From contig CAYMOV010000002.1 in the NCBI GenBank assembly GCA_964392085.1, forward strand, positions 27,314 to 91,313: 64,000 bases of DNA, read 5' to 3'. The position numbers and the translations under genes were made by a program. The stretch comes from an uncultured bacterium. Its GTDB lineage: Bacteria; Oederibacteriota; Muellerivitia; Muellerivitales; Muellerivitaceae. The notes under the pieces are model-generated. The model saw only the letters and a list, made by a program, of their open reading frames with translations, was not told where the DNA came from and ran no database searches. The stretch's first letter is position 1, and each line of letters starts with the position of its first letter. This document shows positions 29,602 to 30,015 of the stretch, in pieces.

Positions 29602-29849
29602 CCTGAGCCCGGGAATTCCCTTGATCGGTTGGGTTTCCGCTTGAGCTATTGAACCCTTTTCCCTAAACTTGGTGTCCCTTCGGCCCCCCTATTGGGAGGC
29701 CGCTTCTTTTTGTGGAGGGACGGGGCCGGGGTGGACCCGGGGGCGGATGAAAGTCCACTTTGGAACGGATCCCAAAGTGATGGCAACCCGTCTGCGCATT
29801 GGGTTCGGGACAAAGCTGGTCTTTTTGACGATAGATCTGGCTTCTTGGA

Positions 29850-29925
29850 CGGGGTGTAGCGCAGTGGCTAGCGCACTTGGTTCGGGACCAAGGGGTCGGA
29901 GGTTCGAATCCTCTCACCCCGACCA
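29850..29925 (+). tRNA. tRNA-Pro: tRNA-Pro (anticodon CGG)
   Basis: Cloverleaf read manually: acceptor CGGGGTG/CACCCCG, D-arm GCGC-AGTGGCTA-GCGC, anticodon arm CTTGG-TTCGGGA-CCAAG, T-arm GGAGG-TTCGAAT-CCTCT, encoded CCA. Confidence 0.85.
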
Positions 29926-30015
29926 AGAAGCCAGATCTGTAGGAAGTTTGGGTCAAACCCGACCAAGATGCCAGAAATGGATGGGCGGGATCACCCCGAC
30001 CCAGAAGCTAGATTT
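29926..30015 (+). repeat. Three tandem degenerate copies of the tRNA-Pro 3' end plus trailer (CCCGACCAAGAAGCCAGATCT-like)
   Basis: CACCCCGACCAAGAAGCCAGATCTG, then CAAACCCGACCAAGATGCCAGAAATGG, then CACCCCGACCCAGAAGCTAGATTTAATGG. The 5' leader AGATCTGGCTTCTTGG is the exact reverse complement of the trailer. Confidence 0.7.

Follow-up and report, generated by a model that had tools for sequence, protein, structure and literature searches.

The stretch analysed here, called the window, comprises 64,000 nucleotides (nt) of contig CAYMOV010000002.1 from an uncultured soil bacterium (assembly GCA_964392085.1), and it carries an operon of two proline transfer RNA (tRNA) genes, tRNA-Pro(CGG) and tRNA-Pro(GGG). 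The first gene lies between a leader and a trailer that are complementary to each other and would prolong the acceptor stem into a long helix; in addition, the spacer before the second gene contains two degenerate copies of the tRNA 3' end and its trailer. The helix and the copies are the subject of this analysis, and the features concerned are listed below.

29831..29848, plus strand: 5' strand of the helix, with perfect pairs from 29833 and TGG at 29846-29848 opposite the CCA.
29849, plus strand: A(-1), unpaired, opposite the discriminator A73 (29922); junction of helix and acceptor stem and expected site of ribonuclease P (RNase P).
29850..29925, plus strand: tRNA-Pro(CGG), with encoded CCA at 29923-29925, called by ARAGORN and Rfam RF00005.
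29914-29936, plus strand: copy 1 of the 3' end, attached to tRNA-Pro(CGG).
29923..29940, plus strand: 3' strand of the helix, CCA and trailer (CCAAGAAGCCAGATCT, then GT).
29954..29976, plus strand: copy 2 (CAAACCCGACCAAGATGCCAGAA), with acceptor 3' strand, CCA and trailer, 78% identical to copy 1.
29991..30013, plus strand: copy 3 (TCACCCCGACCCAGAAGCTAGAT), 91% identity to copy 1, CCC in place of CCA.
30050..30059, plus strand: AAATGGTCGG, complement of CCGACCATTT, the 3' end common to both tRNA-Pro genes; 8 nt 5' of tRNA-Pro(GGG).
30068..30144, plus strand: tRNA-Pro(GGG), second gene of the operon, called by ARAGORN and Rfam (59 bits); its synteny is kept in all relatives.

The score of tRNA-Pro(CGG) with Rfam RF00005 is 68.2 bits (threshold 29), which places it in the family, the anticodon being called by ARAGORN. 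A first-pass annotation, made from the letters of the window, had described this tRNA as embedded in a 17-bp stem of leader and trailer. Both programs call the gene at 29850-29925 and the inverted repeat is real: a repeat finder reports 24-nt arms at 29833-29856 and 29915-29938, which are 96% complementary. The exact complementarity also stood, but the count of 17 pairs did not, since the helix consists of 16 perfect Watson-Crick pairs, an A(-1).A73 mismatch and the 7-bp acceptor stem, and the two A residues that had been bracketed with the stem face each other and do not pair; the leader arm begins at 29833 and not at 29834. The leader AGATCTGGCTTCTTGG (29833-29848) pairs with CCAAGAAGCCAGATCT (29923-29938), corresponding to the CCA plus 13 nt of trailer, and RNAfold adds a U29832.G29939 wobble and an A29831-U29940 pair, leading to 18 pairs. 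Folding of 29828-29943 poses the cloverleaf atop this helix at -66.6 kcal/mol (z = -7.2), and none of 200 shuffled sequences is equally stable.

The best relatives of the GpsA protein encoded upstream of the operon are found, among species-representative genomes, in an uncultured bacterium (70%) and in two metagenome-assembled genomes (MAGs) of candidate division FCPU426, a candidate phylum (59% and 57%). Both FCPU426 MAGs retain the order tRNA-Pro(CGG), tRNA-Pro(GGG), tRNA-Arg(CCT), with spacers of 46 and 59 nt between the two tRNA-Pro genes, while the spacer of the window has 142 nt. A search with an exact 57-nt segment of the tRNA retrieved 33 metagenome loci, and all the complete ones carry two proline tRNAs in tandem; in all relatives the synteny runs der-plsY-gpsA-HU-MerR, followed by the two tRNA-Pro genes and, further on, by tRNA-Arg. 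tRNA-Pro(CGG) is identical in the 33 loci and in the two FCPU426 genomes; its flanks differ.

Despite these differing sequences, in every related locus the leader is complementary to the CCA and trailer, and always in the same register. Examples of leader and trailer are GGTTTTCTGG with CCAGAAAAC, AAGTGGTTTTGG with CCAAAACCACTT, CGGTTCTCTGG with CCAGGGGACCG and AGCATTTTGG with CCAGAGTGCT; loci L142-L145 belong to the common GGTTTTCTGG type. Covariation was counted on an ungapped alignment of 23 distinct rows from FCPU426 and its relatives. Over the 16 pairs, 81.8% of the cells hold a pair, a share that drops to 38.9-49.5% once the 3' partner is displaced by 1-3 columns; both sides vary in 13 of the 16 pairs, and the covariation score of 0.50 (0.12-0.17 for the displaced partners) is reached by none of 500 shuffles. 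The signal sits in the inner 12 pairs, and every row forms 8-12 in-register pairs among the first 12 positions. RNAalifold, to which the structure was not supplied, predicts an 11-bp extension of the acceptor stem, where all eight of the eight variable pairs are compensatory. TGG at -4 to -2, opposite the CCA, varies little or not at all; at position -1, 19 rows have A, three have C, one has G and none has U, and A73 is invariant, so that the -1/73 position is unpaired in 23 of 23. As controls, 11 tRNA-Pro genes with the same 3' end, from unrelated bacteria and taken from viral contigs, replaced a set that was too small (8 tRNAs, from GpsA loci); they form 3-7 of the 12 in-register pairs and mostly have T at -1.

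Two loci, L108 and L110, join a GGTTTTCTGG-type leader to CCATGGATACC- or CCATGATGCC-type trailers; they are probably metagenome assembly chimeras across a tRNA that is identical in many species, and they were kept in the counts as breaks of the pairing. Such chimerism calls for caution in analyses of tRNA flanks in metagenomes.

The kind of substitution tolerated in the helix is informative on the molecule under selection. In the inner 12 pairs G.U combinations exceed A.C ones by 41 to 6, an excess that neither a DNA cruciform nor an antisense transcript would yield, since these pairs are mismatches in DNA and on the antisense strand; selection thus acts on the sense-strand RNA. This bears directly on the idea that the palindrome works at the DNA level, as a cruciform, as an inverted repeat bound by a protein or as the ends of a small mobile element carrying the tRNA. 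The perfect 16-bp inverted repeat of the window would suit such a role, and a MerR-type regulator, adjacent to the operon, and an HU-like protein are encoded upstream. However, what is conserved among the loci is the pairing and not the sequence, the locus is syntenic in all relatives and therefore not mobile, and the motif occurs at no other site in the 64-kb window; together with the G.U excess, this makes a DNA-level function hardly credible. A helix of the precursor RNA was mentioned in the first-pass annotation as an alternative, in the form of a processing or regulatory structure, and for the stem it is strongly supported by the covariation in 23 distinct loci and by the asymmetry of G.U over A.C. 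At the level of the aligned loci, the comparison demonstrates that the helix is kept by compensatory change, in one register and on the sense strand, and the inverted repeat of the window is most likely the form that an ancient RNA helix of the tRNA-Pro(CGG) precursor, maintained by selection, takes in this species.

The other tRNAs of the locus behave differently. tRNA-Arg(CCT), called by ARAGORN at 37475-37551, has no leader-trailer pairing across the relatives (6.6 pairs, compared with 7.1 with a shuffled leader), and leader-trailer pairing as a general trait of the tRNAs of the clade was ruled out by this result. In the window itself, the flanks of tRNA-Arg (37434-37465 and 37555-37587) can form an interrupted helix of about 25 bp, with an internal loop before the acceptor stem and a minimum free energy (MFE) of -64.9 kcal/mol (z = -2.6). 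tRNA-Pro(GGG) displays leader-trailer pairing in many loci, weakly in the window; its covariation is not countable because the pairing registers vary.

As for the role of the helix, the last 11-18 nt of the leader would find their partners in the encoded CCA and the initial 8-15 nt of the trailer, prolonging the acceptor stem coaxially, and the conserved unpaired -1/73 position would mark the mature 5' end. We infer that the helix may act as a cis clamp, which joins the correct 5' and 3' strands in a two-tRNA transcript prone to mispairing. The 3' strand CCCCGACCA is common to the two tRNA-Pro, and the 5' strands differ very little; moreover, ACCCC is a possible partner of the variable loop GGGGU of tRNA-Pro(CGG), with extension of the T arm and loss of the acceptor stem. 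In partition function calculations on the two-tRNA precursor, the acceptor stem of tRNA-Pro(CGG) has a mean probability of 0.84 over 17 loci, and replacement of the leader, of the trailer or of both strands by A lowers it to 0.08, 0.17 and 0.14, respectively; shuffled leaders cause the same loss of the acceptor stem. The mature tRNA-Pro(CGG) alone folds correctly with P = 0.93. These computations support a cis-acting clamp, the helix being required in silico for correct acceptor pairing.

Since the CCA and the RNase P site would be buried in the helix, maturation would require that this helix be opened, by cleavage or unwinding, beforehand or in the process. The first step could be taken by a double-strand nuclease, for example ribonuclease III (RNase III), as occurs for ribosomal RNA (rRNA) processing stems; alternatively, RNase P could cut directly at the -1 mismatch, as in the yeast and human precursor tRNAs (pre-tRNAs) with extended stems. 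In E. coli, at least two leader/RCCA pairs lower the kcat/Km of RNase P and need unwinding (PMC9433436), while the extended stems of yeast, human and MALAT1 transcripts are processed efficiently only in the presence of a -1 mismatch or bulge (PMC8457004); the conserved -1/73 mismatch fits, by analogy, this eukaryotic rule. Protein-only RNase P cutting both leader and trailer is also known in other bacteria (PMC12217051). Searches of open-access papers brought up no account of a long, conserved helix between leader and CCA-trailer in the pre-tRNAs of bacteria. Very tentatively, tRNA-Pro maturation in the FCPU426 lineage might follow a route not described for bacteria, where the helix is the obligatory substrate of a double-strand-specific nuclease, such as RNase III, or of a non-canonical one, for example a protein-only RNase P cutting leader and trailer, and the -1/73 mismatch is the cleavage mark; we regard this as possible, though rather doubtful. 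If true, it would represent a bacterial counterpart of both the eukaryotic extended pre-tRNA stems and the rRNA processing stems.

The same pairing could also be considered as a kinetic brake, in which the sequestration of the CCA and of positions -1 to -4 makes the precursor a slow RNase P substrate and determines the sequence or the proportion in which the two tRNAs mature. Leader/RCCA pairing is an anti-determinant for RNase P, and G(-2)G(-1) substrates lose a factor of 13 in kcat/Km (PMC9433436); the nearly invariant TGG at -4 to -2 would agree with this function, as would the position of tRNA-Pro(CGG), which is the first gene of the operon and reads a rare-codon class. However, two or three pairs would suffice for a brake, and selection keeps 11-16 of them; furthermore, the conserved -1 mismatch resembles a promoter of cleavage and not a block, and a braking role appears unlikely.

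When compared with known systems, the helix may be regarded, by analogy, as a variant that combines traits of the rRNA-type leader-trailer stems and of the eukaryote-type extended pre-tRNA stems. As in the leader-trailer stems of rRNA operons and of the B. subtilis small cytoplasmic RNA, which are RNase III substrates, the flanks pair, enclose an RNA and join its ends; the helix is upheld by covariation, with pairing of the flanks in all related loci and compensatory substitutions that maintain it, and endonucleolytic removal is presumed. Differently from the rRNA-type stems, it encloses a single 76-nt tRNA, has a length of 11-18 bp, directly adjoins the acceptor stem and takes in the mature CCA end. 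The extended stems of yeast and human nuclear pre-tRNAs and of MALAT1 mascRNA (Lee 1997 and Gogakos 2017, cited in PMC8457004) likewise exceed 6 bp of extension and have a conserved or required -1 mismatch or bulge, which marks the RNase P site. Unlike them, the helix described here belongs to a bacterium, contains a genomically encoded CCA, is longer, and is found clade-wide for one specific tRNA.

The usual view of bacterial RNase P is that leader and RCCA must both be unpaired, the RCCA being normally necessary for the type-A enzyme; a clade with 11-18 selected leader/CCA pairs, where -1 is always unpaired, can be viewed as a natural experiment on the recognition of pre-tRNA ends. It raises the questions of whether the RNase P of this phylum, or its RNase III, works differently, whether cis clamps are an answer to the folding problem in operons of near-identical tRNAs, and whether the extended stem with the -1 mismatch rule of eukaryotes had an independent bacterial origin. 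Pairing between the nucleotides upstream of the cleavage site and the 3' RCCA, with lengthening of the acceptor stem, also occurs in E. coli, where it involves 1-3 bp, usually includes -1 and is a tolerated nuisance (PMC9433436); in the clade studied here, conversely, the pairs are 11-18, -1 is always unpaired and the pairing is positively selected.

The second peculiarity of the locus is the presence of copies 2 and 3 downstream of the tRNA. The first-pass annotation had noticed that the tRNA 3' end and trailer are repeated in degenerate form, and these repeats, with identities of 78% and 91% to copy 1, are real and exceed chance expectation. Copies are spaced by 40 and 37 nt, with linkers of 12-15 nt. 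A 16-mer search allowing up to 3 mismatches finds four sites only in 64 kb, where 0.45 are expected and none of 100 shuffles reaches four; global alignments of the units with one another exceed all of 2000 shuffles. The similarity is restricted to a core of about 25 nt, corresponding to the acceptor 3' strand, the CCA and the trailer; an extension of the similarity into a T-arm remnant ahead of the copies lacks significance (p = 0.12 and 0.69), and no fourth copy was found. Tandem Repeats Finder, run on 29500-30500, reported nothing, because the linkers are unlike each other.

The copies are absent from 32 other distinct spacers, and the window is the sole bearer among 33; its spacer of 142 nt compares with 34-88 nt elsewhere, and L088 has a lone CCCGACC. 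The first-pass annotation had considered, as grounds against its reading, that the spacers of the relatives could lack the repeats and that the similarity could fall within chance expectation: the former is what the 32 distinct spacers display, while the similarity is far above chance. Closer relatives with intermediate copy numbers were sought, and the next MerR homologue is 72% identical, on a contig that stops short of the tRNA. Copies 1 and 2 have five differences, copies 1 and 3 two, and copies 2 and 3 seven, and these values are additive with copy 1 as hub, which fits a copy 1 held constant by pairing with the leader. All three bear the host-specific trailer, and that of copy 1 matches the leader at 16 of 16 positions.

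Taken together, spacing and content make local tandem duplication of a unit of about 38-40 nt (acceptor 3' strand, CCA, trailer and short linker), followed by decay, likelier than serial integration, and copies 2 and 3 would be ordinary pseudo-3' ends and not integration scars. A comparable arrangement is found in the distal region of the E. coli tyrT operon, made of 178-bp units that each contain the last 19 nt of tRNA-Tyr, for which local unequal recombination, and not mobile elements, is credited. As in tyrT, the units of the window are in tandem downstream of a tRNA gene, and each opens with a copied tRNA 3' end; they differ in being about 4.5 times shorter, in counting two extra units only, in having diverged and in lying between two tRNA genes.

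The tRNA-Pro region is identical in five independent assemblies from different samples, and it is therefore no assembly artefact; the five display no copy-number polymorphism. Elsewhere the strains differ by up to 1%, and the differences cluster in 27116-27822, in the plsY region, which includes 17 of 24 for L115 and 57 of 59 for L116 and looks like a recombination tract. Because of this clustering, the invariance of the tRNA region is no evidence of constraint.

A related feature of the spacer is a conserved AATGG-YCGG motif, exactly complementary to the 3' end CCGACCATT of both tRNA-Pro, which precedes tRNA-Pro(GGG) by 3-8 nt in many relatives. Besides the window, where it lies at 30050-30059, it is carried by L003, L081, L086, L098, L105, L108 and L120. 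The motif could pair with either tRNA-Pro 3' end or, in the window, with copy 2; its covariation is uncountable because the partner 3' end is invariant. When the whole operon is folded, the MFE structure pairs copy 2 with the motif region, at 30052-30060. Copies 2 and 3 might be seen as functional decoys, alternative partners of the leader or of the AAATGGTCGG motif that tune the folding of the two-tRNA precursor. In addition to the predicted pairing of copy 2, both copies could pair with the leader and the acceptor 5' strand, copy 3 over 25 nt with 84% complementarity and copy 2 over 18 nt with 89%, and the region is invariant among strains that differ elsewhere. However, this invariance is uninformative, with the differences in one tract; no relative has the copies, they are decaying, as indicated by their identities and by the CCC of copy 3, and in silico the wild-type helix fully out-competes them (P = 1.00). 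A decoy function is thus very unlikely, and decaying products of a local duplication are preferred.

The first-pass annotation had interpreted the copies as the scar of serial integration and excision, and it had proposed the integrase at 41605 as a possible partner. On this reading, copies 2 and 3 would be old attR-type remnants of elements that integrated at the 3' end of tRNA-Pro(CGG) and were later deleted. Duplication of an attachment (att) site produces partial repeats of tRNA 3' ends, and a direct repeat of this kind is present downstream of the intact gene, as at the tRNA att sites of integrative elements; furthermore, the same 25-nt tRNA-Pro 3' end is found at the borders of many IMG/VR contigs. 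Unlike at the tRNA att sites, however, nothing lies between the repeats: the linkers are those of 12-15 nt and the whole spacer has 142 nt, with no element DNA. Near-equal linkers, with a regular spacing of 40 and 37 nt, are not expected from two independent deletions of kb-sized elements, and conservative site-specific excision, when precise, leaves no scar behind. The host trailer is present on all copies, and the tRNA-proximal one matches the leader at 16 of 16 positions, exactly where integration would put element DNA. No integrase is adjacent; the nearest, at 41605-42678, lies 11.7 kb away, behind DoxX, OEP/AcrB, sigma-70 and tRNA-Arg genes, of which sigma-70 and tRNA-Arg are syntenic in the relatives, and in its surroundings no repeat of the 3' end of tRNA-Pro or tRNA-Arg was found. 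The scar interpretation is improbable on these grounds, and no link between this integrase and the tRNA-Pro site was seen. If elements had nonetheless integrated here, an attP with CACCCCGACCAAGAAGCCAGAT would be expected in a circular element, and an insert would be bounded by CACCCCGACCAAG. More generally, partial tRNA 3' ends beside a tRNA gene alone are no evidence of mobile-element traffic.

The region of the integrase has features of its own. In window 40000-44000 the G+C content is 0.55, compared with about 0.62, and a 34-nt direct repeat (42781-42814 and 43905-43938) is 79% identical; no tRNA 3'-end repeat that would define an island was found.

The two lines of evidence can be joined in a single account, in which the helix is a selected clamp or processing stem of the pre-tRNA and the downstream copies are a species-specific tandem duplication; we hold it with moderate confidence. 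Several points weigh against it. As regards the helix, the outer four pairs are poorly conserved, and for this reason the window is taken to contain the longest version; nearest-neighbour thermodynamics models tRNAs poorly, as it ignores tertiary contacts, modification and co-transcriptional folding, and two loci, L100 and L102, fail the clamp test even as wild type; moreover, the function is deduced, and the entire case is built on sequences of uncultured organisms. As regards the copies, no homology was detected among the linkers or between them and the T arm, and the duplication is deduced from spacing and content. Two loci would favour integration. In L120, a predicted viral contig from a related organism, an integrase gene (PF00589) lies directly 3' of tRNA-Pro(GGG), and L119 departs from the window exactly after CCCCGACCAAG, so that it could be a strain with an insert at the tRNA 3' end. 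However, neither the window nor the fetched loci nor the viral contigs contain its continuation, and artificial joining of two organisms across the shared tRNA, as supposed for L108 and L110, accounts for L119 equally well; such a metagenome chimera is no less likely than a strain in which the tRNA 3' end has received an insertion or a replacement.

In detail, L119 (Ga0265314_10121092) is 100% identical to window positions 28341-29927 and diverges two bases past the CCA; the divergent part (1587-1647), where the contig ends after 60 nt, resembles the trailer of another clade member. L120 (1-1756, IMGVR_UViG_3300047645_000003) has the same tRNA pair at the edge of the viral contig, with the tyrosine-recombinase gene running into tRNA-Pro(GGG); its 50-nt leader occurs twice (1-50 and 160-208), and the two occurrences flank a degenerate tRNA 5' half.

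Other features of the operon are located in the leader and at the 3' end.

29641..29669, plus strand: candidate promoter of the tRNA-Pro operon, TTGAGC-17 nt-TAAACT, weak and proposed from reading of the sequence.
29794..29815, plus strand: degenerate copy of the tRNA-Pro(CGG) anticodon arm, in the leader, 86% (19/22) identical to 29871-29892.
30186..30209, plus strand: hairpin and T run resembling an intrinsic terminator, at which the operon ends.

The candidate promoter matches the consensus at 8 of 12 positions, below the bar of a strict sigma-70 scan, which did not find a promoter; relatives have TTGAAA-N17-TATAGT at the equivalent place, about 30 nt 5' of the tRNA. If the candidate is the promoter used, the leader would have a length of about 170 nt. 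The anticodon-arm fragment is of borderline significance, with a local alignment score of 29 against a shuffle maximum of 24-30, and at the homologous place of the closest relative, L001, the contig terminates in the tRNA-like GATGTAGCGCACTTAGGG (4566-4585); this suggests that the fragment could be an old, decayed upstream copy of the tRNA. A proposed older leader and tRNA 5' end at about 29705-29730 was dropped, since the alignment is restricted to the 22-nt anticodon-arm fragment and is borderline. In Rfam searches, copies 2 and 3 and the upstream fragment have no tRNA match even at E <= 1, and leader and spacer match no other family.

Upstream of the operon the genes are der, plsY, gpsA, the HU-like gene and the MerR-type regulator; downstream are DoxX, an OEP/AcrB efflux system, a sigma-70 gene and tRNA-Arg, and then the integrase, on the minus strand. 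Between tRNA-Pro(GGG) and the acylphosphatase and sigma-70 genes, the window contains an efflux block of the DoxX/OEP/AcrB type of about 5 kb (30368-35438), while in relatives such as L144 the acylphosphatase and sigma-70 genes are directly 3' of the tRNAs; the block may be an insertion beside the tRNA operon. Farther upstream, in window 10001-16000, the G+C content falls to 0.56-0.59, and GC skew reaches -0.26 in 10001-12000.

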